A DNA stretch of 64,000 bases, taken from NCBI GenBank assembly GCA_964106915.2, contig OZ066920.1; one strand, given 5' to 3'. A program made the translations under genes and the position numbers. Positions 1 to 31,504 of the stretch are shown in pieces; the first letter of the stretch is position 1, and each line of letters starts with the position of its first letter. This DNA comes from Podarcis gaigeae. Lineage: Eukaryota. The notes beneath the pieces were generated by a model that was not told where the DNA came from, made no database searches, and was given only the letters and a program-made list of their open reading frames with translations.

Positions 1-520
<520 letters not shown>

Positions 521-1507
521 TAATAGAGTGAATTATATACTCTCAGCAATCTCTTAAACTGTTCAGTTCATTCCAGTGTAAGCTAATGGAACCAGATTCC
601 TATTCTGCATAGTAGGAGCATGCTGCAACCATGTTACTTTTTGCTTGATAGTTCTGCATGCTCCTTGCCACCCTCTGTCCCCATCCCATAACAATAGTAT
701 ATTTTACTTTCTGCATAAACTAAATGAGAAAGGGGATGTTTTTGCGTAAGGAGAATAGCTATGCTGCTGTTTTCTACTTTCTTATTAAATGTAAAACAAA
801 TATGTATTTTTGATGCAATCAGCTGATGCCAAAAGGGCCAAGAAAATACTCATGAGTAGCATAGTTTGCTTTCCACATTTTTTACAAGATAACTTTACAT
901 TGCCCTTTTGGCTCCAGTGATTATGCAACTGGAAAGTTGCTAGGAGGACTTGTTAGCCAGATTTTTGGAGAAGACAGATAATGCTGTCAAAAGGTGAAGG
1001 AGTTTGGAAGCTTCCACTTCTGTTTAAACATTACATCTGAACCTTAAACTGCAGATTAACTGTTATTATGAACTACGGTTTACTCAAGTAAGCCAGCTTC
1101 TTAAACTACAATTTGAAATTGGCTTTGTTTTTGTAAACAGTTGTTAAAACTAACTGCAGTTTGTCTGGTTCAGAAGTCAATCTGAAACAGAAACAAGCTT
1201 TCAAATTCCTTGCAAGCTGTGCCAGGGAAAAATAGACAAGGCTAACACAGACTTGTCCTATGCCATGGTTTAGCATTACATATGAATGCAGTCCATTGAC
1301 TTGCATCTGCTTGATGTGCTGCTTTCATATATATAAAGATTCTTCAAACAATGTTTCATGTTAACACAGTAAACTTCATATATTTAATTCCGTATTTGTG
1401 ATACAAATATGTGCATTCGGTGACATTTTAAGCACCATAATTTTTTCCTCCAGTTGACTACGTTATGGCTCTTGCTTATGTATATGTATATAAATGATAT
1501 TGCATGA

Positions 1508-1678
<171 letters not shown>

Positions 1679-1792
1679 TAGACTGATGACTGTATAAAGA
1701 TGGGCAAGTCTTTTAAAAGTTTTATCGTTTTAAAGAGAAAGGATTAGAATGAAGAAAAACTGTTACATGTTAAGATTTAAGCACAATATGTA

Positions 1793-2162
1793 CCGTACTT
1801 TTCGCTCCATTGGACACAGTTTTTCCCCTCCAAAAACTGAGTGGAAATGTGTGTGCGTCCTATGGAGCGAATGCAGGCTTGTGTCAAAGCTGTGCGCAGC
1901 CCCTCCAGCAGGGAGAGGCTGCACGGGGCTATGGTTTCTTTAGCCCCGCGCAGCCTCTCCCGGTAGGGAGGGATTGCGCGGGGCTAAAGAGGAAGCCAAA
2001 ACAGCCAGCGCGATCCATCCCGCTCTCCGGCAAGGAGAGGTTGTGCGCAGCCTGTACGCTGCTCTTTGGGGCTGGGGGGGGGAGATTTTTTTTATTGATT
2101 TCCCCACTTAAAAACTAGGTGCGCCCTATGGTCCAGTGCGCCCTATGGTGCGAAAAATACGG
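1793..2162. mobile_element. Non-autonomous Tc1/mariner-superfamily (Tc2/pogo-like) MITE
   Basis: TIRs CCGTACTTTTCGCTCCAT / ATGGTGCGAAAAATACGG, TA on both sides, GC-rich interior. Confidence 0.85.
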
Positions 2163-2523
2163 TAGATTGTAAAGAAGTTGTTAAAAACTTGCTTCTCCAT
2201 TCAGAACCTATATATACCTGGGAATTCCTTTAAAGAAAAGGAGAGTTTACACTGTGCTAAGAAATTCATATAAGAAGCCATTCTTACTGGGAAGTTTTGA
2301 AAGTTCTACCTAGATTTCTAAGCCAAGTCCCATAGTATTTTCTGTATGAAATCTCTGTAAATGTGCATGTTTATTGGTATGAATTAATAGAGAGAATTAA
2401 TAGAAATATTACATTTCAAAAATCTTTAAAGTGTACTTCAGAAAAGGAAAAACAATGATCAAATAGTATTTTAATGAAATTTTGTGTTTTAAAACTCTGA
2501 TTATTATTTTTTTGTTTAACTAG

Positions 2524-2691
<168 letters not shown>

Positions 2692-2775
2692 TAAGGTTTG
2701 GTTTGGAAAATAACCCATAGCTGAAGTTACGTTTTCGAAGTAAGTCTAATAAAGTTAACATGAAAACAAGTTTTA

Positions 2776-3383
2776 CCATATTGGCCCAAATATAAGCTGC
2801 ACTTTTCCCCATTTTCAGACCCTGAAAGGTTAAAGTGTGGCTAATATTTGTGATTTTTTACCATATGCTGCTGAAAGTGGCTGGGAAGCACACGTACTCC
2901 CTAGCTGCTTGATGGCGGGAGTGGGGGAAGCAGCATCCGCCTCCCAGTTGGTTGGCAGTGTTCGCTCCCTAGCAGCTTGGTGGTGGGGGGAAGCAGCGCG
3001 ACCGCCTCCCAGCTGGTTGGTGGGGGGAGTGGCACGCCTGCCTCCCAGCTGGTTGGCGGGGGGGGGAGCATGCGCAGGTCATCCAGCTAGGGAGCACAGG
3101 CACCGCCAAAAAGCTGGGAGGGAGGCGCACACCCCCCCAGCTAGGGAGTGCACGCACCACCAACCAGCTGGTAGGTGGGCACCCAGCTCCCCAAGCCGGT
3201 GCCGGCGCTCGGCTCTTGAGTGCGCTGTGTGCCCGCCTCCTGGCATTACTGCCCTGAACGGGGGAGGCCAGCACCGGCTTGGGGAGCGGGGCGCCGAGTG
3301 TCAGCACCAGCTTGGTGGCCACACCTGCAAATAAGCCTTGAATTTTAAGGGTGTGGGTGCAGCATATATTCGGGCCAATATGG
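2776..3383. mobile_element. Non-autonomous Tc1/mariner-superfamily MITE
   Basis: TIRs CCATATTGGCCCAAATATAAGCTGCAC / GTGCAGCATATATTCGGGCCAATATGG, TA TSD, interior built of CCTCCCAGCTGGTTGG-like repeats. Confidence 0.85.
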
Positions 3384-3849
3384 TATTTAAATTTAATTCT
3401 AATTTTAAAAGTTGCTGATTCAGACAGCATACTGCTAGAGTTCTTTAAGAATTCACATATGAAATTGTTCGTTGAATTGTCTAAACTTCTAGCAACTTGT
3501 TCCTAAAATTATCTTCCTTGCTGGACATTTGGAAGGTACCCATTGTAAAACCAATTTGTTAAAAAGGAATCTGTTGAGGAGAAATTACTCTATTTGGCTA
3601 ATCTCAGTCCTAATTAAATTAGTGGGAAACATTAGGCTAGAATTCTTATATAGAAGAACTGGATGCTGAAGACAAATTTGTATGGTCTGCAGAGAAGAAA
3701 GTTTTTCACTTTTAGCTTTTTAAAAATATTGAAAGAGTTTGTGTAAAGTCTTGTGTAAACAGATTTAATCTGGCTCATGGGAGAATCACTTTTTTCACTC
3801 TCCACACTAGGTCAGAAACAGCCTGACTGGAAGAGGCCTTCTGCTAGTG

Positions 3850-5356: not shown

Positions 5357-5542
<186 letters not shown>

Positions 5543-6800
5543 CTGCTAGCATCTCTTTGCTGTCTGTTACAGCTTAACGTTGTGAAATATATATGTAATT
5601 TGTTTAAAAATATAGCACTAATGTGGAATACAGCCTTTTTCAATCTTCCATATATAACATCAAAATGCTTCACAAAATCTCATTCAATGTTGTAAATGTT
5701 CATACCATTTATTACAAATGGTATTTATTTTAGATCCTAGGTCCAAAAAGCATCTTCCCAACAGAGCTATTTATGTACAAAAAAAAAAAAAATCTTTCAC
5801 TGAAGTTTTAACAGCGCTGGCAGCTGTTACAAAAAAATCTGCTGAAAAGCACTTGCTATTTTATGTTCACTTTAATGATTTTTATTAAACTTAAACTCCT
5901 ACAAAAAACAAAACATCAAGCTGTGGGAAATATTACACGCTTGTGGGAATGTGGGGAGTGAGGGTCTATTCATCTTATATAATTTATAGGTTAACTGTAC
6001 AGTTTTCTTTTTGGAAAAGATGTAATATTGTTTTCATTTTTTAAAATAACTTATTTTATACATATTGCGCAATTGTAAATAATCTTGTATTTAACGTTCA
6101 ACCCTGTATAAAAATAGATATTTTAATTGTAAAACTGTTTTGTCTAATGTTTTATTGGACCAAAGTTGTTGTTTCTTATGTGTAGTGTATAGGCAATTTT
6201 CTTTTAAAAGGCATGTATTTGATTTAGCTACTTGTTCCATCACCATAACTGTTAAGATTTGAGACTGAGTGGTATTGCATGCTAGCTCAGTTCAGGTTTT
6301 TTCCTACTGTGTGGTACCTAAATGATTGCAACATACGGTGCCGATCCACCAAGCACTGCTTCTGTACAGCATCCATTCATTCAGAGGAATTTGCATGAGT
6401 GTCCCTTTCAGTGTGGTTGCAGCAGTGCTTAATGGATTACACTTTGACTTCCTAGAGCCATTTGTCTTTTGCTATGCTGCTGTAATGCCATGCCTATGAC
6501 TTACTATGAAGAGTATTATGTTTAAAATCTTAAAAGATTATAAATCTGCTCTTACATTGTGGTCTCAAAACAAGCCTTTTAGTGTCCTGCTTCTCCCTTA
6601 CAAATGCCTCTCAATGAAAAATTGTACATTGTCTATTTTAATATTTACCTATTAAAGCATATGTAAATAGTTGTAAATACAATGTTTAATAAATTCTATT
6701 GGTCATGCTAACAGATGGTTGAATCCTTGTGATGGTGAAATTTTCATTCTTGAAGTTTTATACACTTTGACAAAAATAAATCTTTGAAAGTTCCATGATA
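5543..6800 (+). terminator. ANKRD12: ANKRD12 3' UTR with poly(A) signals ATTAAA 6651, AATAAA 6688 and AATAAA 6775
   Basis: AT-rich sequence after the stop codon, with hexamers followed by U/GU-rich sequence. The cleavage site is inferred. Confidence 0.65.
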
Positions 6801-7040
6801 AGATTGTAGTTTTATATTCTGACCAATTCTCCATTTTTTGTGAAGAACTGACTAATAATATAATGTTCTTATTGTACTATTAGAATGACTGCCATTATGA
6901 TTGGGTATACGTTATGTGGAGGGAGGGATTCTGGATGTGCCTAGGGAGAGGTGGATCCAAATCCTCAGTCACTATGTCTCAGCTTAAGCCTATCTGAGCT
7001 CCTGGGGGGAACTCTGTTAAATTGTCCCAGAAGAGTATTA

Positions 7041-7284
7041 TTATTATTTTTTGTTAAATCATTTTAATTAATTTTCCAATAAAAAAACATCCAATTATCA
7101 TATCAAATTATAATCCAATTAAAATAAAAAACTAAAATAAAAAGACTAAATTATCATCCAGATTATAATTATTAATTTTTCGGGACTTCCCATAGCCTGG
7201 ACCTTGAAGCATATCTCCAAATCTCAATCCTGCTTCTCCTCGTTGTTTCCATATTTTCCACATCTCGATTTTAACGCTTTAACG
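7041..7284 (-). mobile_element. 5'-truncated non-LTR retrotransposon 3' end (L1/Tx1-like)
   Basis: Perfect 13-bp TSD CAGAAGAGTATTA (7028-7040 and 7285-7297). A-rich/(TAA)n tail on the minus strand. Confidence 0.7.
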
Positions 7285-7710
7285 CAGAAGAGTATTAAAA
7301 TACATTGCCCTCTGTGTCCTATCTGTTGGTGATGGTCAGACCACTCCACTATAAGGGAGTTTGCTTGCTCATGCTAAATTTGTCAAAAAGTTTAGTGTTT
7401 TATTTTCCCTAGTGTGAATGAATAACAAACACAAAATTAACCTTCCTTTGTAAGGTTAACAAGAACATTGAGAAACCCTAGTGCCTTTGGGTGGGTGGAG
7501 GTGAAGAGGGGCAATTTTTGCTGCCTCTGATCTGTCTCCCAAATTGGAGGCTCTTTGCCATCTACTCAAGGGAGGCTCATGAAAACTGTCCATCCCTGTC
7601 TGCATAGACTCTTTCATCTACAGAAATGTGTCCCTTAGTCATGCCAAAAGTGTGACTAATGTTTCAAGAGTGTGACACAGAGAATGTTGGAAATCGTTAG
7701 ATAGATGGAT

Positions 7711-7810
7711 TAAGAACATAAAAAGAGCCTTGTTAAAGTAGATTGAGATCCATCTCACACAGCATCCTGTTTTCAAGTATGGCCAACCAGATCCCTCTGT
7801 GAAGCCTTCC
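7711..7810 (-). mobile_element. CR1-type LINE 3' end fragment
   Basis: TAAGAACATAA...CAGCATCCTG...TGGCCAACCAGAT, the reverse complement of the 3' end seen at 31130-31208. Confidence 0.55.
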
Positions 7811-7956
7811 TTACTCTTTGTCTCTGGCACTGTCTATTCCAAAGATAGAATAACTCCAAACAAGGACTTCAATTTGGCTATGCTGATTGCTGTTGATAGC
7901 TATGTGATGAACTACTATTTCTTGCTATTTTTGTTTTAAACTATTTAATCAAAGTA

Positions 7957-8793
7957 CAGTGGTGCCTCGCAAGACGAAATTAATTCGTTCCGCAAGTCTT
8001 TTCGTCTTGCGAGTTTTTCGTCTTGCGAAGCACGGTTTCCCATAGGAATGCATTAAAAATCAATTAATGCGTTCCTATGGAAACCGCCTTCAGACCAGGT
8101 CCGGGGACAGTCTGTCCCCCGACCTCTTCTGAAGGCCGGTGGGGGGGCGAAAGTCTTTGCTCCCCCCCCCCGCCTGCCTTCCCGGGACAGCGGAGACTTC
8201 TCCGCTGTCCCGGGGCGGTCTTAAAATGCTGGCGGGCGGCAGCGAAACCTTCGCTGCCGTCCCCCAGCTTTTTAAAAGCCCCTGGGACAGCGGAGACTTC
8301 CCGGGGCGATTTTAAAATGCTGGCGGGCAGCAGCGCTGCGTTTCTCCGCTCTCCCGGGAAGGCAGGCAGGGGGGACAAAGACTTTTGCCCCCCGCCCGCC
8401 TTCAGAAGAGGTCCAGGACCTCTTCTGAAGGCCGGTGGGGGGCGAAAGTCTTTGCTCCCCCCCCCCGCCGCCTGCCTTCACAAGCCATCCGGGATAGCGG
8501 GAAGCGCTTCCCTGCTATCCCGGACTGCTTTTAAAATGCTGGCGGTGGGGAGCAAAGCCTTTCGGCCCCCGCCGGCCTTCCTGGACCTCTTCTGAAGGCC
8601 GGAGGGGGGGGAAAAGGCTTTGCTCCCCACCGCTAGCATTTAAAAGAGGTCCCCGGAGATTTCCCTATGGGCTTTCTTCTTGTGAAGCAAGCCCATAGGG
8701 AAATTCGTTTTGCGAAGCGCCTCCAAAACGGAAAACCCTTTCGTCTAGCGGGTTTTTCGTCTCGCGAGGCCTTCGTCTTGCGGGGCACCACTG
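7957..8793. mobile_element. Tigger/pogo-like MITE with GC-rich repetitive interior
   Basis: TIRs CAGTGGTGCCTCGCAAGACGAA / TTCGTCTTGCGGGGCACCACTG, TA TSD. Confidence 0.88.
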
Positions 8794-11700
8794 TACTTTA
8801 TAAGCAGTGTAGAAATTGTAGATGGAGCATAACTAAACTAATGTGGTCATTGTGCATTTTTGCTGCATGTAGAGGGGATCTGGTTGTAGCATCCAAGTGT
8901 ATAAACATGTCAAAATTCATGTATGTGGAATATTCACACAGGAAGCGTGTGATGCTTGTATTAATTCAGACACAGGATGCTTGTATTAATTCAGAAGCTA
9001 ACCCAGCAGAATAGGCACACAGATTCTTCATTTTCCTGTTGCTGATTAAAATGGGATAAGCACAGAAGCAGCAAAGTGGTACAAAGTTTCCCAGCAGGTT
9101 TTTGTGTTTTGGCACATTGTTTGCTCCCAGAGAAATGGTGTTTGGAGTATACATGCCACAGGCAGAACACTAAGCTGGAATTTCGCTAGGAACTTCTGTT
9201 TCCCATGGACAGTATTCAACTATAATGTCCTATCAGCACAAGAATTCCTGCTTCCACAACAGGACTTTCCACCTTCTCCCCACACTTTCCCTGAACCTTC
9301 CCTATATCTGCTCCATAGAGTTGGGGGGACTCCTAGAACAAATTGGGGGTGAAATGAAGGTAGGAGAGGGAGAAAACATTCTGTGGCACAAGCAGAAATC
9401 CTTGCACTTAAAGGATGTTCACATAGTACAACATTGGACACAACTCTACATGTTTATTCACCATGCGGATGTTCTTGACGTTCAGGTTTGAAAAGGATAT
9501 TGTTGCTGTTTAGAGAGTATGATGGGCCAATAATTGCACACCGCTAGCTCTCTGGTTAAGCACCATATAATATTCTATATAGTTCCTTGGGACATCGCAA
9601 TAAAGTAAGGAATGTAAACAGTTCCCTGGGGCATCCAACATCAAATTTCAAGAGGCACCATCATGCACATCCGTGTGTGTGTGTGTGCATGCCCCTGTAT
9701 GCAGGAAATGGATGCCTTTTCCCTCCCTTTCCCTCATAGCTTGGGAGGGAAGGAGTTTAGTGCAGTTGTGCCACCATGCTTAAAATGCACATGTGGAGCT
9801 TGGAATCCACAAGAAAATAATAGACACTGCCCCGCCTCTCCTCTCCAGTCACACAAGCAAGTAAAGCAGCATTTGATAAGAAGAGGTTGGGTGGACAAGG
9901 CTTTAGTAGCAGCTGGTGAAAGCTATAGTAGAAGCTGCCCAGTCTCAATAATGGAGAAAACCTAGCCAGCAGACGATAAGGATACTGCTACAAAGGACTG
10001 TGTGGCAAACTTGTTCAAAGCTACCAGGTATTCTTTTTCTTTTTATATCTCCCCATAGACACCTGTGTGTTTAATACCTTTACGGCAGGCAGAATTCAGC
10101 AGCTTCACTTGCTGAATTTTTGCCTCCCATGTTAAAAGAAAGGCCTAGCGCCCACTTATTTATCATTGTACAAATTACTCACTGGTGTTAGATGCACTGA
10201 GCTCTAATAGAGACAATTATTTTACATCTAGGGAGCAAATATTGTCGGCCTGTTGCCATTTATTTTTATTTTGTCTTTAGGATATGGTTTTATTTACACA
10301 TATATACAACCTGAGCATTGGATGGGAGGGGGTTGGTCTGTTCCCATTTACGTATATGAAACTTCTCTGTACATATGCTGCATTGTGTATGTGTAAATAT
10401 TAATAGGAATGTGAATTGGATTATAACCATTTCTTGTCATGATTCAACAAATGAAGCTTTCACTTATTTTCATGTTGGAAGAAACATCTACAGAATTTTA
10501 CAGCTGCTATATACATAGGAAATATACTGTGGTGGGGAAAAATGGTGGTAACCTCATCTTCATTTCAAGTTGTGTTCTAGGGTTCCTTTTCCGTCATACT
10601 TCTGACACTTTCTTACCTGTCCCAGATGGGATTAAATAATCTACCCACCTCCCAGGGCACATTTATTTTCATGCACCCTCAGTATGACTCATGGGATGCT
10701 CTTCCTCTCATTTGCAGAGGGAAGAATTTCCCCCCTCTTATTTTCCTTTTTCTTAAATAGAAAGCCAAAATGTTTTTTCCCAGTGAATCTGTTTCACCCA
10801 CTAGGACTTCGATCCTGTGAACATTTAGGAGTAAGCCCCACTGAAAATGAGGAAATACTACAAAGGTTGATTGCCTCTTAACATGCTTTAACCAGCCACA
10901 AATGAAGTAAGATAATGTGTGAGAAAGCATTGGTTTTGCTCCCTCTTTAAAAGTATGGTTATGGATAAAATGGGAGTTCTTAGAGTTTAATGGTGTTGCA
11001 GGGGCTAATCACCTGGGTCTTAGTCTTGCAGTTGGCACGTCATGCTGTGCCATATTATCTCTAAAAATCCACACACTTGATGTCGCTTAATGTTACAGGC
11101 TACTTATTGACCATGTTTAACAACTCTCTTGTAGAAAACCCATGAGAAGGCGGCAAATTTCTGTTCCACTCATCCATTATATGCTTATGAGTGAAGTGGG
11201 AATTTTAGTCCATGCTAACACTGATGGATAATCCCCATTACAGTAATAGATTTTATGATAGATAAAAGTTATGGTGGTAAACAATTTCTACCTGTAATTT
11301 GTAAATTTAATTTGTAATTAATTAATTGTAAATATTGAGGCAGAAATTAAATGACTTTCATATAATCGGATTAACAAAGGTGAGTACTGAATAAGGATTG
11401 CATCTCAGTGATAATTTTGAAACCACTGTCCTATACAGAAAGGATTGAAATACTTATGACTATGAATGAATCATGACCAAATCCATTAAATGGCAGGTCT
11501 CTTCAACTTTCATACCCTTTCTTTCAACCTTTATTCTCTTCATTAATTTCTAAAACTGGCTGGGAGCTGTACTGTACAACAGAAGACTGGTTGAATGTTG
11601 TATGAGCTTACTAATTATAAGAAACAGGGAGGGAGGCTGTTCCTGAAATAACTAGATCCAGATTACAGTGTAGCTGAAAGGGACAGAGATCTCACCATAC

Positions 11701-12279
11701 TGAATTACATAAGAAACCTATGTAGCTTAACATGTTCTTTCCTGTTTGCTAAGATCGGAAATGAGAGGTGTGTTATTGTGTACCTGTTGGCCAAAGAGAC
11801 TACTGTCTTTTCTGTGCACAATTACTTAGGAATAAGGCACATTGACAGAACTGGAAATTACTTTTGAGCAAGCATGAATAGGACTGCACATAAACTTCTT
11901 ATTGTGGACCAGTCTATTATTTACATTCATGCCCAGATGGATCCTGAGAAGTTGTTTCTCCTTGAAATGCTAGTAAATGCCCAAATGGGTCGTGAGCTAT
12001 AGTCTTTCTTAGACATATTACATTTTTTCACTTACTTTGTTCATCTATACCCTGTTTGTCCTTGTTCTTCTGTTTAAGGTGAATTCTGGAATGACCTCGC
12101 ATTTGGAATCTCTAGTTACTGGTGCCCATTGAAATTTGAAGGGTGGAAGGGAGACCAACAATAGGTAGAGCCAAAGCCAGTGACAGGCAGAGCAAATTCT
12201 AATTTTGTTAAAGCGAATTATACCACGGAGGAAGGGACACCGCTTGGGCGTAAATTTAACGCTAATTCGGACGCCTATA

Positions 12280-12960
12280 CAATGCGCATGCGTGCTCCTG
12301 GCTCAAACCATCCCTTCGCTTCCACACATACCCCTTATAAGACTACATCTCCCAAAATGCATCAAACAAAAAAAAAGGGCAGGCGGGACTTTCTACCCGT
12401 TATATAAAAATAGGGAGAACAAGTGCGCAGGCGCAGGCTCCCTTCTCCGCTCCTCTTGGGTAGCTCGCTCCCTCAGCTACTACGACAGCCCCTCCTTGTG
12501 CGTCATGCGCGTGCGCTGCCTAATTCCGGCCTCTGCCCTCGATAGCCAAAGGGCTGCAAGAAACAGGCCGGAGAAGCGGGGGGAGGAGGAGAGAAGGGCG
12601 TTCGCGCATGCGCCTCCAAACTGCCTCCTTCTGTTCCCTATACCCGACCTTGTAAGCGGGCGGCGAGGGGATGGGGCGCGGAGCGGGGCCCGGATGAGGC
12701 CGAAGAGGAGCCAGGCTCAGCACAGCCGTCCTGCCAGCGACGGGCTCCCCACCCACCCGCTCAGGTCAGTGCTGGGGCCATGCTCATGCGCGTGAGGACT
12801 CCCCACCCGACCCGGGTTCTCCCTCACATCAGCTCCGTTGCCCCCGAGAAGGGGGTGAGGGAGGGAAATGTGGCCGAGCTTGTGGGAGAAGGGCATTAAC
12901 TGAAGCTCTCTCTGCGGCGCGCATGCGCTAGTATCCCTGTGCAGCGCCCCCTAGCGCCTG
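12280..12960 (+). promoter_or_regulatory. RALBP1: RALBP1 CpG-island promoter with NRF1, ZNF143 (SBS) and CTCF-like motifs
   Basis: The main CpG-dense region outside transposons. GCGCATGCGC-type sites at 12283, 12424, 12506, 12603, 12781 and 12918. ACTACATCTCCCAAAATGCA at 12342. GCAGCGCCCCCTAGCGCC at 12941. Confidence 0.8.
12650..12764 (+). other. RALBP1: RALBP1 non-coding exon 1 (start approximate)
   Basis: Donor CAG|GTCAGT at 12764/12765 inside the CpG island. Exon 2 begins at an acceptor upstream of the ATG, so an upstream exon is required. Confidence 0.55.
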
Positions 12961-13657
12961 GGGGCGTCTTGTGACTGAGGCCCGGTTGGGTCTCAGGCTG
13001 CCACTCCCTTTTTCTCCTCAGGATTGCCGAATGGGGTGTTGGCATATTGACACACCCTGCGGGTGGGATGAAAACGATGCAAGCAACGTCGACATTAGCA
13101 ACCGCTTTGAGGTTTTTTTTTGGGGGGGGGTGCACTCAAGCGGTGTATAAATTTTATGAAATAAATAAATACTCTGCAACAAGTGGTTCAGGTTGCAATC
13201 CTATGCACGCTTAACATGTTAAAAAGGCCCTTTGCATGTAGTGGGGTTAACCTCTGAGTAAATGTGTGTTGTCCGAGTATCTTCCACTCACCATCATTCC
13301 CTCCACCCACTTTTGCCTGCTTAATGCTCCCGGTGACTACTTATGTGGACTCTCTTAATGCATAAACATGCCCCTTTGAGACTATGGCAGGATGGTTAAA
13401 AGATAACTAATGAATGATGTTAAATTGCAACCAGCCAGCCCCCATTCACAAGCATCCTGTTTGTAAGATCAAATAAACTTATGAAATGGGAACACAGTGG
13501 TAACTATTGTGATTCAGGATGCATTTATGTAATGGTTTTTCTTTTTGGGGGAGTAACTGTTGCAGTCTTCCATGTACCCTTTCTTAGTTACTTAGATGTG
13601 CAAAAATAAACAGGGATTTATTTATTTTTTAAAAAAAGGATTACAGAAGCTCATATA

Positions 13658-14580: not shown

Positions 14581-17500
14581 GCCAGCCCCCTCTCAAGCAC
14601 CTTACCCCCAAAAGGGGATATTTGTGATAGGGTGGTAGTTGTCAAACACCTCAAGATCCAAGCAAGGCTGCTTTGGGAGCACTACGGCCTCCTTTGTGTA
14701 CGTTTATAACATACTTTAGTTTCTGTATTTAATGAAAACCATAACATACCAGGATTAGTTGAAGAAACAAATACTGTGATATATTTTAAAAGATTTCTAG
14801 ATTTGTGTCTATGCTCGTAATTGTATTGGTCACACAGAATGCTTGTTATTAGCAACAGAGCAAATACTAAAGATACCAGTGCACCTTGTAAAAGAAAAAA
14901 AGTTTTAAAATACCTCTCTCTGAAATCCTGGAGAGCTACTGTCAGACAGGACTGTCCTCATTCAGGCACAATTGGTCTGGCTTGGGAAAAGGCAGCTGCT
15001 TATATCCTTCAGCACCACAAAGAACTCTCTCTAAGAAAGGTTTCTTTTTGTATGTGTCCTGTTGGGTGCATTTGTTAACACAAGGAATTGTTTTAGCCAC
15101 ACAGAATGATCTCTGTATAGGTGGCTACAGTTTCACTAAAGGTTTTGGAAGTGCTTCAAACTGTAGCTGGTTATATATTTACCCGAGCTACATGGTTGCA
15201 GCTGCTCCATGGCTGGATCTTCCACAGCTCTGGTAATATTTGAGTAACAGAGATCAGTGCAGCAGCAGGAGTGTTTAAATCAAGCTGTGTATAGGTAAAT
15301 ACAGCTTGCATAGTGCAAGTAACCCCATCCTGAAGATTGTTAAAGCACACTAAAGCAATTTCAAGTTTGCCTTCCTGGTTCACAGTGAAAGCTTTTCTTC
15401 CTCCAATCGGTGACTGATTTGGAAGTCCCATGTTCTGTTTTGTATCCCATATCTACATTGCTTGCGCTGTGCTAGTATACCGACCACTGAGATCAAAACA
15501 GATTTCATGCCCTGACTTTCAAGGAAAAGAGATGGGGAAATATCATTTTTAAATTTTTCTTGTGATCAGAGAACCTTTGCTAAGCATCAGGCAAAAACTA
15601 CCATTCTTCCCACCTCCTCTCTTTCCTTTAGGAAAGGTCGGCAGGAAGCTTCTCGGGCTGCTTCTCCATAATAGGGCTCATCTGATGAGCTTTTGTGACC
15701 ATAATTTTTGGCTTTGCAGGCAAGGCCAGCCAAAAAATATGGACCTCTGCACAGATGTCACAAAGTAAAATCTTCCTCAAAGCTGTGGAAAGCAGTGTTC
15801 TCCCCATTCATATTTTTTGGTGTAACCCAGCCCATTTTAGCCACAATTCAGTTTTAGATCCCACTGACTTCAGTGGGAGATACGTATGTGCTTAGTTCTC
15901 TCTCTGAATTTAATTGAATTGTTCATCCGGATAAGATTTTTTTCTTTTTTATTGAGGCAAACATTCTGCCAGATTTGAGCATGTGTGGACACATTATATT
16001 AGCTGTGGCTCAGCAAATGAGGAATCTGGAATAAGAAAATGTTTCCCAGAACATTTCAACACCAGAGAGAGCGGAACTGTTCAGTGTTTGTTATTTGTTG
16101 TACCATGACTTTGAAATGAACTTATGATAAGGTTATACTGTGTCTGAATGTTTGCTAATAAACTGCTTAAAAAGCAAATTGTGTATGGACTTGAAGAGTT
16201 GCAGCTGTGCTGTTAACAAAATAGGAACCTGACATGGGTCAAATCAGGTTTGTTTATGATGCATAGATTCTTTGTATTCCTTCCCTTTGACCCACTTAGA
16301 GTTAAAGGGACCTTATGGACACTTTTCTAGCTTTTAGTCATTCAAGGTCAGTGGGGCTACTCAGGGCAAAGTGGTTTAAGTTTTGACTCATGAAGCTCAA
16401 TTCAGTGCATATTTAGTGAGGGCTAAGTCTGTTCAGTTATGCTAGGATTGCAGGCTCAGCTGAGAAAACTTCAATTCTGAAATGCAAGGCAATGCTTTCA
16501 GAATGAGTTATCTTCTGATTTGGTAGCAGTAGCTGTTTGATTCAGGGCCAAAACTGCATGAGAGACATGGCATCTATGGTAGGAGCTCCCATTTTTATTT
16601 TTTATTTTGAAGTAATTTTAAGGGGATTCAATTTTTTTTGGAACAGTTGTGTGGAAGGAGAGAGAGATAAACTCCATGGCTTCATACTCCTTATCTAAAT
16701 CTCCAAGGTGTTGCTTCACTGGTGGTTTGGCACTTGCTCTTGGCTGTGCAACTTAATTGGAGGACCTTCGTAAGACTTTCATAAGCAATAGTAGGCAAGA
16801 GAGTGATTCACATGGGAGTTACGAGTTGTCCTGATAATTTTTATTCTATGATTCTAGTTTTGAAATAACAACATGTTCTACCAGTGTATAGTCTACACAT
16901 GATAAACTTTAGCGCTGAGAGAGAACAGAGTGTTCTTTACATAAATGCAAATCAGTCTGACAGCAAGGATAGCTAAGGCAAGAGATTCAAACAAGGCTTA
17001 TAGTTTTGCCCTAAGACAACCCCCAGGTTCTGTGATGGAAATAAACAATGTGCATGCAGGAAATTGGCACAAACATACTTTAAACTAGAGTACTCTTATA
17101 CTTCTTGTTTTAGGTTTACCTCCTGTTCCAAGATATAGAATTCTTCTCTCAGAATTGACATAAAAGGGGAGAGATTATGAGCTAATAGGAGTGTAGGGCA
17201 TGAACTAGGGTCCAGGGAGAAAAGGAAGTATGAAGAGTAGGTGGGGTGGGGGATCTTCAAATTGCTAAGATTTATTGAGATTAGCAGACCTCTTTGAAAG
17301 GTACCTCTGAATATTGAAGGGTTCCCTCTTCTGCATTGAATTTTGAACTTCAGGTCCCTTTGTTTAAAGTCCTGACTTTAGAAATCCTATAATACTTCAC
17401 CGCTTGCAAAAAAAAGTGCACTTGCAAGGCTGAGATGACTGATGAATTTTCTGTCTGATGTACATCATTCCAACATCACATTAACCATGCTGTGCTGGGA

Positions 17501-18548: not shown

Positions 18549-18792
18549 ATGACGGAGTGCTTCCTGCCTCCCACCAGCAGCCCCAGTGAGCACCGCAGAG
18601 TAGAGCATGGCGGGAGTCTTGCTCGGACCCCGAGCTCTGAAGAAATCAGCCCAACAAAATTCCCTGGCTTATATCGAACTGGCGAGCCATCACCACCTCA
18701 TGACAGCCTGCATGAGCCTCCAGATATTGTGTCTGATGATGAGAAAGAACATGGGAAGAAGAAAGGAAAATTTAAAAAGAAGGAGAAAAGAA
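18549..18792 (+). CDS. RALBP1: RALBP1 (RalA-binding protein 1 / RLIP76), first coding exon
   Basis: MTECFLPPTSSPSEHRRVEHG...KKKEKR is the RALBP1 N-terminus. The exon starts at 18496, with phase-1 donor GTAGGT. Confidence 0.97.
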
Positions 18793-19029
18793 GTAGGTAG
18801 TCCTTCTCCTCTTCCAATCTGTGTGCTACTAGTGTGCTTTTTAGTATTTACGGTTTGCTTTTCATGACTCAATACTTGTGTGCATGTGTTTTCATGTACA
18901 GCACGATCCCATCTTGTGCACAGTTAACGAGTGTGATTTCAGTCTTGCGCAGTTGAAAGCAGGCCAGTTGAAATTGCGTGAATTAATTGCACACTTAAAG
19001 GCTCCTTTTGCACTGGGTTTTCCCAGTGT

Positions 19030-19272
19030 GGAAAGAGCTTTTAAGCTCTCCATCTTGCTTACCAGGCAAGTCCTGCTCAGTATGCGAGTTCTGGGATGCT
19101 CTTGCAAGATCTTGTGGGAATGTGGATGCCCCCATGAGATCTCACGAGAGCATCCCAGAGACCACAAGCTGAGCATGACTTGCCCGCTAAGCAAGGCGAG
19201 AGCATCCCAGAGACCACAAGCTGAGCATGACTTGCCCGCTAAGCAAGGCAAAGAGCTCAAAAGCTCTTCCTT
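19030..19272. repeat. Fold-back (palindromic) element with a perfect 52-bp tandem duplication in one arm
   Basis: 19054-19102 is the reverse complement of the unit CGAGAGCATCCCAGAGACCACAAGCTGAGCATGACTTGCCCGCTAAGCAAGG, which occurs twice (19145-19196 and 19197-19248). Confidence 0.85.
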
Positions 19273-21380
19273 CCTTGGGTATAAGGTCCACTTGGCACAT
19301 TGGCTCGGGAAGGTAAAGTATGGTCGCACCGTGACAGTTTCAAGGGGGTGGGCTGAGTATATGGGCCATCTCCAGAGTCTAACCCTGTGCAAGATGTGAT
19401 TATACTGTAGCCCTTTATATAATTTATTCATTTAGTTTCAGTGTGTGTGGCACCACAAGTGTAAATGTATTTCATAAGTGTTACAGGGGTTTTTTTTGTA
19501 TGTAAATGTTTTCTAAGGCATAAGGTGCTATAAAATCTGTGCTAATTCTAATCAAATGTTTTGGTATGTGATGCCTTCGTATCCATCAGAGTCTTAAGAT
19601 TATTTGTAAATCTGCTAAGGCTTTCATGACATCTAAATGAGGACTATAAAAATATTTCCAAATTGCAGCAGTGACATCATGGCTGTGTATCGACTATCAT
19701 ACCTCATAATTAACTGAGGTATGAACAAGCCTCATGGAGCCACCTCAGTCCTTCCCTATGATCTAGGAAGTAAGCCTGGAATTCTCAGTTAACCTATAGT
19801 TTCCTTATAGGTTTGTACTGGCAAACTATGGTTAACAAATTCCAAACAAACCAGGATATTAAACCAACTTTAAACAGTGCCTTAGTATTCCATGCATGTT
19901 TGTAAGCATTAAGTGTAGTTTCCTGGTTTGGAAACAATGGGAAACCCTTGTTAACAGAAACTTGTTGACTTACTTGCCTGCTCATGCAAAGGGAGGAGCA
20001 AAACAGCTCTCTGCAAGTGTACGATACTCATTCATATCTTGGCTTCTTAAGCTAAAGAAAATTACAGTCTGAAGCTAATGCCATCACTTTAAAACAGGTG
20101 GGGAACCATTTTCAGCCCAAGAGCTGAATCAGAAATTGGGCCACCCCTCCATGGGCCTCTTTTTAAGGTGGTTGGGGCAGATCAGCTTATTGGTTCTAAA
20201 AGCCCCCTTGAAGTTGTTCATTTACAGGTGCAGTTTGGTATGAAACCTCGCTTGCAAATGGACATTTTTCTTTGGCATTTGCAGGTGCAAATGATTAAAC
20301 GATTAAATATTGCAAGGGGGAGATAGCAGCAATGCCTTTTCCCAGCCCTGTGCATGCTGTGGCCACTACTGCCATCCAACCTGTGTTTAATGTGTAGATA
20401 ACTAAAGACTGATGAATCGATCTTCTGTTCATTTAAAATTGTTGACATTAATTTCTCTCTTTGGTTTCCGTTGTGACAGATTCATGTATTGTCTAGCTAT
20501 CTGAAAATAAATTTATTGCAAAAAATGGCATTAGCAGTAAAATCTCCAAAGACAACTGTTTTCTAAGCCTTGTCAAAAAGTTCTGAAATTGCTTCTCTAA
20601 TTGTATTGGGAGTTATGGCTTTTGGCATTTTTATCCACATCCACTGTTTCAGCGCTAATTCTACTACATCTGTTCTCCTTCTACAAGTACCATAGCTGTC
20701 AGAATGGCAGCTATGGTACTTGTAGAATAATACATTTTTTAGGGATTGCTAGTTCTCCATTTTTTGTATTTTGCAAGACACATTGGTTAATCAAAGTTTG
20801 AATTCTTTGAAAAGTTACATTTTATCTTGGTGCCTTGATCTGTGGTGAACATTCTGTACTGTGATGCTGTTAGATTTTTGTGTATACAGAAGTATCAGTA
20901 GGCATTCAGAAAAACTCAAGATGCTTAGCTTCAAATTATGGATCTAATATTTCAGTAGCTGTTTATTTATTAAATATTTTAAACAAATATGAGAACCCAG
21001 AATTTCAGACTTCAACTGTGTGTTTTCCTTCTTTTAAAAGTGGCAGCATTGTTTGCCTGCTGGTTTTTGAAGTAATGTGAAGAATTAGAGTTTCTTAGAG
21101 CAGAAGTCTATGAATGTTTGCTTGGAAATAAATCCCACCATGTTCAGTGGCGCTTACTCCAAAGTAAGTGTGCATCCCTAGGTCATTTTGGATTTGATTT
21201 TTAGTGCAGGGCTGCAGCTGTTGGGTCAAGGCTTGGTTACTCTCAGTCCTAGGGTGTGGCAATCTATTTATGGACCATATATTCTAGTTCCAAGTTGGTC
21301 CACATCTCTGGATACAGAGCTCTTACCCCCACTTTGGTGGCCTGACATTCATGCTGGAATATCACTTCAGCGCTCTAGCA

Positions 21381-21520
21381 CAGTGGCTCTGCGTAACTCA
21401 CCCAGGGCACCATTCACATAAAAACTACCATAAATATATCAAAATTTTCAAAAGTAGGGTCCACGGCTTGGCTTTTGAAAAACAGGGGGTCCACAGTACT
21501 TAGCTAATTGGGAACCAATG
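21381..21520. mobile_element. hAT (Charlie-type) MITE
   Basis: Perfect 8-bp TSD CTCTAGCA. Ends CAGTGGCTC / GGGAACCAATG. Confidence 0.75.
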
Positions 21521-22389
21521 CTCTAGCAGGTTCTCCATCAAATTTAGTTCAGGTTTTTTTTTTAGCCATTTCCTCCTCTGTCTTAGCATATGTGCTGCAA
21601 TAAGTGATGGGTGTGTTTTAGATATTTATTTTCTTGTTCTTCCCTACAGGGTAGGCAGGGCTAGTTGCAGAAGAGGTGTAGCTTATTGGACTCCTGTGCA
21701 TTTATTTCAGAGGCAGCACAGTAAAGCACCTGATAATTTGCAGCAAAAGCTTTGTTTGTCTTATGGCTGTGGAATTGAACTCTCTTGTGCAGTTTACATA
21801 ATCCAAATGGGCACATGTAGTTAGAGATTTTTCAGGATGATTGGGACAACTTTGCCCATGGAACTGAAAAGTAAGTTATTTCTTTTTAGAGGTTGTACAT
21901 TAATTTTTTACATTGTAGAATATCTGGTTTGCCTAGAATATCTGGTCTAGCCTTTTTATTACAAGCAGTTAACTTAGTGGTTTGTGCAATGCAATCCACT
22001 TCTCATTGAAGTCAGTAGCAAAGCTCTCACTCATTTTAATGCAGCAGGATTGTATTATTTGTACTTTTTGCAGGTTGATTTTCAGATGTGCCTGTAAAGA
22101 TGTTGAACTGATGCCATGACAGTGTGTTATATTCACTGCAAAAATACATATATTTTTGACATTCTAATTTTAATAATAATGATTCTTATAATTAATATTT
22201 ATGATGAAAATAACAAATGTACAAGTTCAAGAAGTTCTGACTAATTTTCTATACTTTTTGCAAGTATGAACAACTGTGTTATAATGCTTCTTTAATAACA
22301 AATGAAAGTTCAAACCATTTATTAGTGGCAAATGTGTGTTGTTTGAATATTGTTTCTGATTGCAATGGTTATTAAATAATTTTATTCAC

Positions 22390-22585
22390 TTTCATACAAC
22401 TCTTCTTCCAAGGAACCCAAGGCAGGACAGTGTACATGCCCCACCTACACACAGACACACACTAATCCTTATAATAACTTTGTTGAGGTAGGTTAGGCTA
22501 AGATAGGCTTACCAGCCAAATGGCATCCATTAAATTTCCAAAGCTTAGCATGGATTTGAATCTGGGTCTTCCTGCTCATATTCTG
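22390..22585 (-). mobile_element. Old CORE-SINE (MIR/Squam3-like) remnant
   Basis: Degenerate similarity to the SINEs at 27441 and 45111 (TGAGGTAGGTTAGGCTAAGA...GGATTTGAATCTGGGTCT). Confidence 0.5.
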
Positions 22586-23373
22586 CTTCTTATCCGTGAG
22601 ACCCTCCTGGTGGTAATAGAGACTAGCAATAGCTCTTCTACTCATCTTGTTTAACAAACTCTTTTGCCACCATAATGAGCTTTATATATGCACTCATTCA
22701 TAAATTATCACATATCCCTGTTTGCCTGTTGGCCATCTTAGAAAATGGTAACCAAACTGGAAAATTCATACAACAGGATGCAAGTGTCTACCCAAGTAAA
22801 ATCACATAGGCCTGAATCATATACAAACTTCAAGATTCTCTGCACATTCTGTTGTTTTACAAGAGTCTACAGCAGATCCTGGAATATTGCTAAGGTTTAA
22901 GATAAGCAGATATGTGCCATTCATATCACTTTACAGCATCAGTTCTGTATTGATTTTGATGTTACATTTTACTTTAGGAGGAAACGATGAAAAACATTAA
23001 GGTGCCAGTACTAAGTTTATTTCACAGGGAATAACTCCACTGAACACAATGGGATATTCAAGCCTTGGCTTAGGCTTGCATTGCAAGTTGGAGTTAAACT
23101 TCAAACTGTACATTTTTGCATATTGTTGTCAGCAGGTAATCAAGTGATTCTGCTTGTGTATGAAGCTTTCATACCAGAGTAATATTTTTAAAAATTCATG
23201 TACATTATTCAGGGGAAGAAAATACATCAGAATTGTCTCCAAGTCCTGCATAATTCTGCAAATCTGTGTATGTAGCACATTATTGCTGAGCATTTTTCTG
23301 CCTTTTGGCTTTTCTAGGTAGATTATGCATTTGATATTTTCCCTCCTTCATGTCTTCCTTTTTCTCTTAACAG

Positions 23374-23832
23374 CGGAAGGCTATGCAGCCTTCCAGGAAG
23401 ACAGCTCTGGGGATGAAGCTGAAAGCCCCTCCAAGTTAAAGCGCTCCAAAGGGATCCATGTTTTCAAGAAGCCAAGTTTCTCCAAAAAGAAGGAAAAAGA
23501 TTTTAAGATAAAAGAAAAACCCAAAGATGAAAAACATAAAGAGGACAAGCACAAGGAGGAAAAACATAAAGAGAAAAAATCTAAAGACTTGACAGCAGCG
23601 GATGTTGTGAAACAGTGGAAAGAGAAGAAGAAGAAGAAGAAACCAGCTCAAGAGGCAGAGATACCGCAGGTGGATATTCCCAGGCCTCGCCCTGTGTTTG
23701 GTATCCCTTTGGCAGATGCAGCAGAAAGGACCATGTTGTATGATGGCATCCGCCTGCCAGCAGTTTTCCGGGAATGTATAGATTACGTAGAGAAATATGG
23801 CATGAAATGCGAAGGCATCTACAGAGTTTCAG
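23374..23832 (+). CDS. RALBP1: RALBP1 coding exon (EGYAAFQEDSSGDEAES...K/E-rich region...start of RhoGAP domain, EGIYRVS)
   Basis: Acceptor ttaacAG, donor GTATAG, 459 nt, phase 1/1. Contains the GAP arginine-finger motif GIYRVSG. Confidence 0.97.
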
Positions 23833-26519
23833 GTATAGTGGCCCAATTGAAGGTAGTTTTCCTCTGCTTTGCCTCCTGTCTTTTGACCCAAAGGGCATGG
23901 TGGGGCTCTCCACCTTCACATTGCCCAAAACTTCATGTGACTTTGTAAATGCCTGCAGCTTCCTAAAACCAAATGTGTTTAGCTGCTGTTGAATTTAGGC
24001 TAGCTCTAAATTTAAGGCTGGAAGAATTGCTGATAAGCAGGTATAATTGAAAAATGTTTTACCCTGCTTATACATATTAAAGTTCAAGACACAATTCTAT
24101 ATACATCTACTATTTGTGTTTAGTGGTGCTTGCTCCTGGGTAAATGCGCATTTTATTTATCTATTTAGTTCATAAAATTTATAAATTGCTTGATTGTGGG
24201 TGGTTTTTTTAACAAGTTACATACATTACCACTGCAATTAAGACTGCAAATCTTATGCCCAGTTTCCTAGAAGTAAGCCCTTTGAATTTGACTGGATTTC
24301 CTTTTCAATGAACATATAAGATTATGCCGTAAGTTAGCAAATCTAGTCTTTTGCATTTGAGGGCACAGTGTCTTATCAGATCCATTAAAGTCATGCTTCC
24401 CTAGAGTGGCACTGATTTCCAAGCGGTTTCCTCAGCCATCTGCCACAACCTGCTTGCTGAGTAGAGCAATTGAAAAAAACAACAACATGGTTCAGTCTTT
24501 GTGATAGAAAGAGAAAATTGGCATGTGGCATTTCCCAACTGCATTCCTCACAACGCTTGCTCTGGAGTAGTGACTTCAGTATGTATAATGGTATAGAGTG
24601 GTGTAAGTAACTTGAGGACTGTGAGAATATAACCTAATCAGAGATGTTAAGAACCTTGCAGTTTTTTGCTATATATTTTTAATTATGTTGTATAAAAGAT
24701 TCAGGGCTAGCAAGTAAAATAGTGATTTGTCAAGTGGCATATGGTGGGGAGAGAACATATTCTTCAGCTGTTTTTCCCTCCTACACTTTCATTTTGACTT
24801 TCTTCCAAATGGAATTTATACACAATGTCCTCATTAGCTGGTATCTTGAAAAAACAGGGGAAATGTTGCAATAGCAGTTGAGGATTTAGCTTGGATTTGA
24901 AAAAAACACTCTGGTGGTAATGCCAAGATAATTAGCAGCCACAGTAGTTGTGTAACCCTTGATCCACATAAAAGTAACAATGATTCAAGTCATTTATTTA
25001 ATTATACAGCTGTATTTTGAATTGTGAATGCCACCTGTGAGAGGCATCATGCCCGTGATCGAAATGCAGTGCACGAGCTGTTTTGACAGGAACTGAAATG
25101 CAAATTCCAAGGCGGAATTTAAAGACAAAACTGCACAGGAAGTAAATATTTTGAAGAGATGTTTAGTGCAAACATTGCACATTAGTGAAACATAAATATG
25201 AAAGCATAGCCACACTTTTATTGACACTATGTCACTATTTCTTGCAGAAATATAATTTTCTGATCTTTGAGGTTCATAGGCTTATATCCTTTACTATGCC
25301 AGGCCGTGCTGCAGTATGACCATGACAGTGTTAAGTGTCCTTCTCTGGGTAGTAGATATGGATGCTGCTTGGAATTTAAGCTTGAAAGGGAATTTGTGCA
25401 AGCATTGGAAAGTGTTCGGGCAAGTCTGAACAATGCAGAGAAGTGAAGTACTCTGATTATAACTGACTTGTAAATAAGTCCATAAAAGTTAGTATCCTGC
25501 AACCTTGCTTTATTTTATTTTTACTAACCTGCCTCCTAGCAGACTAGTGGTGTGGATGGGTGTTTAAGCCTTCTGCATTTCTGTGCCTGTCCTTCCTCTG
25601 TGGCTAGCATGGAAACCGAACACACTGGCAGAGGACAGCAGGGCAGTTTGTCTCTCCTTCACCAGTGTGCTCATTCATCAGCATAGAATTCCATGCACTT
25701 GCCTGCATGGAATTTTACTGGCCTTTGATGACCAGGTGTGTTCTTAGAAATAAGGATTGAAAGTGGATAGTGTACAACACATCAGAACATGGGTGTGGTT
25801 TATTATTATTAAACAAATTAAAGAGATGGTCGAAATTCCAAATCAAAAAGTCACCATCCAACCACTATCTCTGCTGTTTCTCCTCTACCTGCTTTTGCTG
25901 TAAATTGGAGACCCTGGATGCACCCACAAAATACACAAAACTATGGTTTAACACCCAAGGGTGAGCCTGAGTGACTTGTCAGGCTTGCATGCATTGTTCT
26001 CTTCCGTCATGGTCTTGAGGTACATTTTGGCAGAGTTTAGTTTCACAGAATCCTGGATCGTTACTACATTTGAAACATGGATTCTAATTTAAAACAAACT
26101 GGCAAGTTTCATAACAAGCTGGTGTCAGACTGTGGGTTTGTTCTGCTTGGACTTGTTCTGGCTCATCCATGCCGTGCTAAACCATGCAGACACAGCCTAG
26201 TGCACCTTCCTTCCTTCTTCCATTGTACACCACACCCTTATCTGCAGTCAGCATGCTGTAGTGTTATTTCTTGAGTTAAGAGCCCAGGGTGGTATTCCAA
26301 CAAAGTTTTCCTGAGAGCAGACCTATTGAAATTAATGAACGCAACTAAGGTAGGTCCATTAATTTCAATGGGTCTGCTCTGAATAAAACTTACTTTAGTA
26401 CTTTCCCTGGTGTTTTGTGACTTTGCAAAATGAAGATAGTGCTTTACATGTGTGATTGCTCTATTTTTGTATGTTTTTGGAATTATTTTGTGAAATCATT
26501 CTAATTTTATTTTTTTTAG

Positions 26520-26869
26520 GAATTAAATCAAAGGTGGATGAGCTAAAAGCAGCATACGACCGAGAAGAATCCCCCAACCTGGAGGAGTATGAGCCTAACA
26601 CGGTAGCCAGCTTGTTGAAGCAGTATCTGCGTGAACTTCCTGAAAATTTGCTTACCAAAGAGCTCATGCCTCGCTTTGAAGATGCTTGTGGGAAGAGCCT
26701 GGAGGTTGAGAAATTGCAGGAGTGCCAGCGTCTCCTGAAAGAACTACCAGAGTGTAACTATCTCCTAATTTCTTGGCTGATTGTGCACATGGACCATGTA
26801 ATTGCAAAGGAACTAGAAACAAAAATGAATATACAGAACATTTCCATAGTACTCAGCCCAACTGTTCAG
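26520..26869 (+). CDS. RALBP1: RALBP1 coding exon, RhoGAP domain (GIKSKVDELK...NISIVLSPTVQ)
   Basis: Acceptor ttttttAG, donor GTATGC, 350 nt. Contains the ASLLKQYLRELP RhoGAP signature. Confidence 0.97.
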
Positions 26870-26931
26870 GTATGCGTAATAGGCTCTCTCTTTCCCTACT
26901 CTCCCCCCCCCCTCTCTCTCTATATATATAT

Positions 26932-27195
26932 CAGTGGTTTTCAGACTTATTTCTCTGGGCCAATTTCAGAAAAATAATTTGCTCTTGCCACACTGAATTT
27001 TTAATTGATAAGAAATACATTGGGACACAAAAAGAAGCAACAACTAGCAGTGCTTCATTTTGAAAAGATCTCTGATGCTATACTATACTACACTGGAATG
27101 TTTAGGTGTTTATTTGATTTTCCTTGAATCTTCCCGCCACACTTGCTATCCTTTCCTGCCACATCATGGCATGTCACACTCTTTGAGAACCACTG
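26932..27195. mobile_element. hAT (Charlie-type) MITE
   Basis: TIRs CAGTGGTTTTCAGA / TTTGAGAACCACTG. The TSD is obscured by a (TA)n run. Confidence 0.65.
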
Positions 27196-27440
27196 CCTAT
27201 ATCCCTGCCTACATCCATATGTTGCTGAAGGTAAGCAGAGTTGGGATCTGCGTAGGACGCATATAGAAGCTGTTTTGACTCTTCAAAGGAAGAGGAGATG
27301 TAATTGTAATTAATTGTGAACCAAGCTATCATTTATAGTTGGTTGGGACCAACAAATTAAACTTAATGACCTTCTGGTAGTACCCAGTCACCCTCTTACA
27401 TAATCCAGACCAGTGTGCAACTATCAGAGAGCAAGTGTAC

Positions 27441-30528: not shown

Positions 30529-30690
30529 ATCAGCAATCGTGTCTTGTATGTGTTTTTCACACATGTTCAAGAGTTCTTTGGAAAGGTGATTCTGAAACGG
30601 GTGACAAAGCCTCTACGCTGGTCTAACATGGCAACAATGCCAGCATTGCCTGAAACACAGGAAAGCATCAAAGAAGAAATTAGAAGACAG
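30529..30690 (+). CDS. RALBP1: RALBP1 coding exon (ISNRVLYVFF...EEIRRQ)
   Basis: Acceptor cttttcAG, donor GTTGGT, 162 nt. Confidence 0.95.

Positions 30691-31267: not shown

Positions 31268-31504
<237 letters not shown>

Follow-up and report, generated by a model that had tools for sequence, protein, structure and literature searches.

Relocation of TWSG1 away from ANKRD12 and RALBP1 in a wall lizard, probably through copying of a DNA segment and later deletion of the original gene

The segment considered here, a 64,000-nucleotide stretch of the genome of the wall lizard Podarcis gaigeae (the window), covers positions 49,042,001-49,106,000 of a 91.9 Mb contig (OZ066920.1 of assembly GCA_964106915.2, referred to as C16). 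A first-pass annotation had proposed that TWSG1, whose product modulates BMP signalling and which in human lies between ANKRD12 and RALBP1, is missing from it, having been deleted or moved. On the plus strand, an exon at 5357-5542 (stop codon at 5540-5542), which we take to be the last coding exon of ANKRD12, is followed by a 3′ untranslated region (UTR) that extends as far as the poly(A) signals at 6688 and 6775, with a further hexamer at 6651. RALBP1 follows on the same strand. Its promoter CpG island, which begins near 12.0-12.4 kb, and its non-coding first exon occupy 12250-13050, with a predicted donor site at 12765 and a first-exon boundary that is likewise a prediction; the coding exons span 18549-37288 and were identified with PDB 2MBG (E 3e-65) and by nine exon matches of a stored RALBP1 protein. 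Minus-strand exons delineated by an exon finder at 42542-61855 presumably belong to PPP4R1; look-ups in the PDB and Atlas gave no name for this gene or for the ANKRD12 exon. The distance from the ANKRD12 poly(A) region (6651-6775) to the RALBP1 promoter is thus about 5.8 kb, as the first-pass annotation had stated. The evidence presented here indicates that the interval at 6800-12400 is the vacated ancestral site of TWSG1 and that the gene now resides on a second contig, C24.

No coding remnant of TWSG1 was detected at the vacated site. A tblastn search of the interval with the two Tsg proteins of this genome gave a best match of 13 residues at E 0.046, and the mouse, gecko and bird TWSG1 proteins gave a best E of 0.72; as a positive control, the same search recovered all four coding exons of the gene on C24 at E ≤ 5e-20. 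When six segments of the C24 gene were compared with the interval by nhmmer, four had no match, one matched only the ends of the transposon at 7954-8792 described below and one gave a weak match to the RALBP1 promoter. The absence reported by the first-pass annotation is therefore upheld. Two non-coding relics of the old locus, described below, had escaped it. Mobile DNA accounts for about 1.1 kb of the interval, close to the earlier estimate of 1.2 kb, and comprises a short high-copy repeat at about 7050-7290, marked by a depth spike and contig breaks, and a miniature inverted-repeat transposable element (MITE) of 839 bp with 28-nt terminal inverted repeats (7954-8792). This MITE is recent, is lacking in three of four sequencing runs and is unrelated to the move of TWSG1. 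It is also the only CpG-rich DNA before 12 kb, in agreement with the earlier statement that the interval holds no second CpG island. The assembly of the interval, excluding the ANKRD12 3′ UTR, was checked with contigs from four public runs of three studies, picked from 24 listed; the list for the interval contains no RNA data set. Of 30 bins, three of these runs cover all and the fourth covers 26. Depth away from repeats is that of single-copy DNA, and breaks occur at repeats only. Together the independent contigs tile the interval; one covers 9699-12400, and none spans the whole.

Profile searches of the genome with Pfam Tsg and Tsg_N yielded three Tsg loci (3 of 9 and 3 of 17 candidates matched), none of them on C16. 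One is an intact gene on the minus strand of C24 (3.986-4.002 Mb) that encodes 222 residues in four coding exons (3996155-3996036, 3992000-3991901, 3988199-3987933 and 3986149-3985968), preceded by a CpG-rich first exon at about 4002438-4002117. The splice sites of the coding exons are all GT-AG. The gene has four introns, and the coding introns lie at the same positions as in a paralogue on C25. The frame is open over the four exons, starts with a signal-peptide-like N terminus and carries Tsg_N and Tsg domains above the Pfam cut-off as well as every Cys-rich motif sought by the first-pass annotation. Exon 5 matches human TWSG1 (PDB 8BWA) at E 1.5e-34. The protein is identical at 218 of 222 positions to that of Podarcis lilfordi, at 186 of 222 to that of a primate and at 84-87% to gecko, bird and mammal TWSG1; together with KCT2, a neighbour on C24, it is 92-98% identical to Podarcis records. 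All 24 cysteines common to bird, crocodilian and primate TWSG1 are kept. The equivalents of Asp34 and Ile40, described as BMP-binding positions in PMC11167000, and the three N-glycosylation sites given there are also retained.

The tree of Tsg matches that the first-pass annotation had called for contained 36 rows (34 full-length proteins picked from 106 matches, and the two proteins of this genome). It placed the C24 protein within the TWSG1 clade (99/97) as sister to TWSG1 of the amphisbaenian Rhineura (100/100), and the C25 protein in a "TWSG1-like" clade. Judged from its sequence, the C24 gene is the intact, intron-containing orthologue of TWSG1. Of the earlier alternative "deleted or moved", the second part holds: since an intact orthologue exists, a true loss of TWSG1 is refuted, and the whole-assembly search produced the very finding that the first-pass annotation had named as favoring translocation over loss. 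Retention of the gene removes any need to suppose the developmental loss of a core BMP modulator. Just upstream of the promoter of the moved gene (at about 4.006-4.007 Mb of C24) lies a copy of the window's MITE family, most likely a coincidence given the great abundance of this family.

Two non-coding elements are common to the old and new sites. The first, a low-copy sequence at 11505-11810 of the window (plus strand), aligns with C24:3979184-3978892 (70% over 309 nt, E 6e-40), 6.8-7.1 kb downstream of the TWSG1 stop codon and in the ancestral TWSG1-to-RALBP1 orientation. The second, a segment of RALBP1 intron 1 (16711-16907, plus strand), aligns with C24:3976911-3976705 (64% over 207 nt, E 6e-15). 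Beyond the end of the moved gene the two relics are thus collinear, following one another as they would have done, and facing the same way, in the ancestral TWSG1-RALBP1 locus. The presence at both sites of two collinear non-coding elements, one of them from within RALBP1 intron 1, indicates that a block of DNA was copied. The copied block would have started upstream of the TWSG1 promoter, taken in the spacer between TWSG1 and RALBP1 and ended within RALBP1 intron 1, with subsequent reciprocal loss, of TWSG1 from the old site and of RALBP1 coding sequence from the new one, where no RALBP1 coding match was found. The deletion junction at the old site would fall within about 6800-11505. We put at roughly 85% the probability that TWSG1 reached C24 as part of a duplicated DNA block and that the parent gene was deleted afterwards. 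Copying may have occurred by ectopic double-strand-break repair; the ends of the block have decayed beyond alignment and are too degraded to be read. The first relic, retained at both sites, is a candidate enhancer. Mismatches between the relic copies are directional, 72 being AT at the old and GC at the new site and 30 the reverse. A likeness between the TWSG1 and RALBP1 promoters (12404-12739 of the window and C24:4002507-4002150; nhmmer E 9e-4) was not used, as its gappy alignment scored 59 and the best of 71 CpG-rich controls reached 56; in this weak alignment both promoters begin at a TATA-like word.

The old site is ancestral for TWSG1, as seen in the outgroups mouse and gecko. The ancestral order is that of the mouse (PMC2923722, Table 3). 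In the gecko Heteronotia, TWSG1 (XP_060099991) and RALBP1 (XP_060099992-4) have consecutive accessions on one contig of 138,576,041 bp, and in the bird Rhynochetos both genes are on one contig. In Zootoca, TWSG1 and KCT2 are on a contig of 59,632,304 bp and RALBP1 is on another of 88,830,846 bp; P. lilfordi has TWSG1 and KCT2 on a contig of 59,066,452 bp. In Rhineura, TWSG1 (91,898,290 bp), RALBP1 (323,582,766 bp) and KCT2 (232,427,479 bp) occupy three different contigs. Of 159 stored Tsg proteins, four combine five derived TWSG1 motifs, and each of these comes from Rhineura, Podarcis or Zootoca. The ancestral form of all five was found in 61 of the 159, a single derived form in four others and two derived forms in a retrocopy-like record. 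It is likely that the move predates the lacertid-amphisbaenian split and that KCT2 came later.

On C24, TWSG1 is one of eight unrelated genes (KCT2, SRI, TWSG1, BCDIN3D, ADIPOR1, NDUFA4, EHD3 and IMPAD1) packed into a gap-free cluster of about 280 kb; there is no run of N from 3,753,492 to 4,243,361. Gene content between 3.66 and 4.31 Mb was obtained with a simple exon finder and checked with Pfam and the PDB. KCT2 is preceded by CCM2, NACAD, TBRG4, a zinc-finger gene, POMGNT2, HIGD1A and CCDC13, in this order, and IMPAD1 is followed by CDC25A and MAP4 (the names TBRG4, CCDC13, CDC25A and MAP4 being our assumption). C24 is 62.7 Mb long, with telomere repeats at 1-3466, so the cluster lies about 4 Mb from a telomere. 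At the far end, a 497-bp tandem satellite (62681775-62691774) adjoins the other telomere and possibly marks the centromeric end. The cluster region has a GC content of 0.45-0.49 and is about half covered by repeats, against 9% in the window, by a repeat measure that is biased by the sequence sampled. In addition, a GC-rich acidic open frame in an intron of PPP4R1 (window 62153-62491) has a 73% match at C24:3717831-3718189 and is likely part of a mobile element.

Donor loci were demonstrated for three of the eight genes: C16 for TWSG1, C3 for EHD3 and C24:26.1 Mb for SRI. SRI is single-copy in the genome, in the cluster. A broken sorcin (SRI) exon, 67% identical, survives at C24:26134964-26135166 in the ADAM22-STEAP4 interval (26.13 Mb), STEAP4 having been located by an F420_oxidored search after a Ferric_reduct search had missed it. 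EHD3 has two intact copies (C24:4101402-4132496 and C3:90093423-90113058), so that the genome contains five EHD loci instead of four. The C3 parent adjoins CAPN14 and XDH, and exon boundaries and intron relics are common to both copies. Over 499 codons the pair differs by 1.31 synonymous (dS) and 0.037 nonsynonymous (dN) substitutions per site, and both copies are under purifying selection; the GC content at third codon positions is 0.81 in the new copy and 0.57 in the parent. These three genes would represent three stages of one process: both copies intact (EHD3), the parent reduced to one decayed exon (SRI) and the parent gone with only its flanks left (TWSG1). The GC-richer state of the new-site copies, in the relics as in EHD3, is as expected of a high-recombination distal region, where GC-biased gene conversion may have acted.

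Genome searches found ADIPOR1 and IMPAD1 in the cluster only, and 63 of 64 ADIPOR1 residues are as in human. An adiponectin-receptor match on C30 (41522436-41530200; 83%), tried as the parent of ADIPOR1, was rejected as a third, older paralogue, neither ADIPOR1 nor ADIPOR2, that lies 0.7 Mb from the contig end beside genes we take to be CCDC115 and IMP4. CYB5R1, presumably the old neighbour of ADIPOR1, was not located; a genome search with FAD_binding_6 gave three CYB5R-like loci, none tied to CYB5R1, which may reflect a missed match or a loss.

The gene positions in Table S3 of PMC7849413 place CCDC13 beside HHATL on chicken chromosome 2 and anole chromosome 6, and likewise in boa, viper and tiger snake. 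According to the same table, SRI is flanked by STEAP4 and ADAM22 in human, chicken, boa and three other snakes, while POMGNT2 is listed at 35-47 Mb. On these positions, C24 is the homologue of chicken 2p, anole 6 and the snake Z, and the arrangement of the cluster is derived. POMGNT2 and a 624-residue C2H2 zinc-finger frame (C24:3833099-3859283) lie outside their anole and snake position, and the mosaic zone may therefore reach beyond the eight genes. In the list of snake Z genes of that table, TWSG1, ADIPOR1, EHD3, IMPAD1, NDUFA4 and C5orf15 have no matches; this blank is weak evidence because HIGD1A, CDC25A, MAP4 and TBRG4 have none either. The acceptor would be a GC-rich, repeat-rich region of C24 in which synteny is broken between CCDC13 and CDC25A.

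How the gene came to C24 could be explained differently. A cut-and-paste move or a rearrangement with no duplicated stage, the common elements being chance or repeat matches, would fit the lack of a TWSG1 coding relic at the old site and the location of the cluster at a synteny break (PMC7849413, Table S3). It is nevertheless improbable: a collinear pair of non-coding elements that recurs at the old and the new site, one of the pair from within RALBP1 intron 1, requires a copy, the first relic is low-copy, and the neighbours EHD3 and SRI display duplicated stages. Retrotransposition of TWSG1 mRNA, for which a TWSG1 retrocopy on C2 and a possibly intronless BCDIN3D in the cluster offer precedents, is the least credible of the alternatives and is refuted for TWSG1, as the C24 gene has four introns, the coding ones at the positions found in the C25 paralogue, and is accompanied by DNA from RALBP1 intron 1. 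That the C24 gene is instead an old duplicate masking a true loss gains some plausibility from the existence of an old Tsg paralogue lineage. This lineage is, however, represented by the separate C25 gene (42% identical), whereas the C24 protein falls inside the TWSG1 clade, is 84-87% identical to TWSG1 of gecko, bird and mammal and carries flanking DNA of the ancestral locus; the tree and the relics refute such masking. An error in the assembly of the window or of C24 is also very hard to accept. Although no single contig contains the whole interval and breaks persist at three repeats, independent contigs tile it, the C24 cluster has no gap, the Zootoca and P. lilfordi assemblies give the same linkage, and relics that are 30% diverged cannot be the product of an assembly collapse.

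A further alternative bears on the cluster alone and can coexist with duplication of TWSG1. One ancient shattering with templated insertion might have placed all eight genes at once, with no long-lived landing site; the similar identity of the three datable relics (64-70%) and the packing of the genes without a gap are in line with this. In Rhineura, however, TWSG1 is away from RALBP1 while KCT2 is on a third contig, which suggests separate arrivals, and a single event appears possible but doubtful. The genes of the cluster may instead have arrived at different times, as the contigs of Rhineura would suggest. We slightly favor the interpretation that one distal site, on the chromosome that in lacertids corresponds to chicken 2p (the snake Z), has for more than 100 million years functioned as a gene trap. 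In this view it repeatedly received DNA copies of conserved single-copy genes from unrelated chromosomes, and these mostly replaced their parents, TWSG1 being the first, before the lacertid-amphisbaenian split.

Several observations weigh against duplicative relocation. The ANKRD12 side yielded no relic, and neither a breakpoint nor a target-site duplication nor microhomology survives that would identify how the copying took place. Two degenerate patterns of the first relic, allowing 2 and 3 mismatches, matched these two places only in the whole genome (reversed controls, 0), both matches being built in by design, so that the patterns gauge extra copies of this relic only. Each relic occurs in two places in 1,177,177 fetched bases, and for the second the count holds for this 1.18 Mb and not genome-wide. 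A direct DNA search with the first relic found only itself; as it missed a copy of 70% identity, it is too insensitive for counting copies. Positions in other species were read from the contig size and accession number of database proteins and denote linkage, not adjacency, and the move is dated with a gecko as the only outgroup. In PMC7849413 (Table S3), SRI of the anole is on chromosome 4, unlike in the snake, chicken and human rows, although its Ensembl number falls between those of STEAP4 and ADAM22. A single open frame holds the coding sequence of BCDIN3D (C24:4032378-4033232), which may be a retrogene; its human counterpart presumably has a coding intron. For KCT2, BCDIN3D, ADIPOR1, NDUFA4 and IMPAD1, the donor loci are our assumption.

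The two other Tsg loci are of a different nature. The C25 gene (7122089-7128380) encodes an intact protein of 216 residues with 24 cysteines, has the exon layout of TWSG1 and lies next to a CBM21 (PPP1R3E-like) gene and HOMEZ. Its protein groups with "TWSG1-like" proteins of shark, coelacanth, lungfish, sturgeon and amphibian (100/100). No mammal or bird member of this clade was found among 106 Tsg matches, and the gene is likely a genome-duplication paralogue that was lost in mammals. It shares clade and exon layout with the gnathostome proteins that RefSeq labels "TWSG1-like" and differs from them by a long branch (1.14) and a leucine at the Ile40 position. Lizards would therefore own a BMP-modulator paralogue that mouse-based models lack. 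The C2 locus (103505860-103506608) is a processed retrocopy of TWSG1, which joins exons 1-2-3 and part of exon 4 and comprises 5′ UTR and an open frame of 133 codons cut off in exon 4 (dS 0.07 over 73 codons). A Podarcis muralis record, a protein with Tsg_N only, resembles it. The joined exons show that TWSG1 has been spliced in the germ line, as a record of past splicing only.

Synteny-based screens would call TWSG1, SRI and probably ADIPOR1 missing in wall lizards, and a false gene loss is thus removed. To our knowledge, single intron-bearing genes rarely change chromosome in amniotes. The main interest lies in the apparent long-lived landing site. If the proposal is true, eight genes at one spot with parents in varied states of decay make it testable where duplicated DNA lands and why a copy outlives its parent. 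They would form a natural series for gene survival after loss of the regulatory neighbourhood in vertebrates, and with TWSG1 it could be tested whether a regulator of development depends on the surroundings of its ancestral locus. Literature searches turned up no description of the TWSG1 move, of the cluster or of the second Tsg gene, although subscription papers and supplements may contain one; in database annotations these proteins are already assigned to their chromosomes, but this goes unremarked.

The C24 gene resembles vertebrate TWSG1 (PF23782 and PF04668; PDB 8BWA; PMC11167000) in its four coding exons, 24 cysteines, Asp34 and Ile40 equivalents and three N-glycosylation sites. It differs by its new chromosomal address and by the five derived motifs, which among stored proteins are restricted to lacertids and Rhineura. 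DNA-based relocation by duplicative transposition and parent loss is known in Drosophila and plants. In these cases introns and flanks likewise travel, the parent decays or is deleted, and landing occurs near rearrangement breaks; the present case differs in that it concerns a reptile and that conserved single-copy genes have come together in one place. Subtelomeric and pericentromeric regions of primates are acceptors of segmental duplications and are similar mosaics of blocks from several chromosomes in repeat-rich distal DNA. Primate copies are young and mostly partial or pseudogenes, whereas the lizard copies are old (64-70% non-coding identity) and, unlike those acceptors, the cluster holds the sole copy of TWSG1, SRI, ADIPOR1 and IMPAD1. 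No functional theme is visible in the cluster, unlike in metabolic clusters. A search of the literature for a yeast analogue of clustered relocation found none. PMC4629796 describes yeast BNA6, a single gene that was transposed to a rearrangement site and shows accelerated evolution; it is similar in its move to a lineage-specific rearrangement site and in its lengthened branch. In yeast one gene was involved, compared with eight in the lizard.

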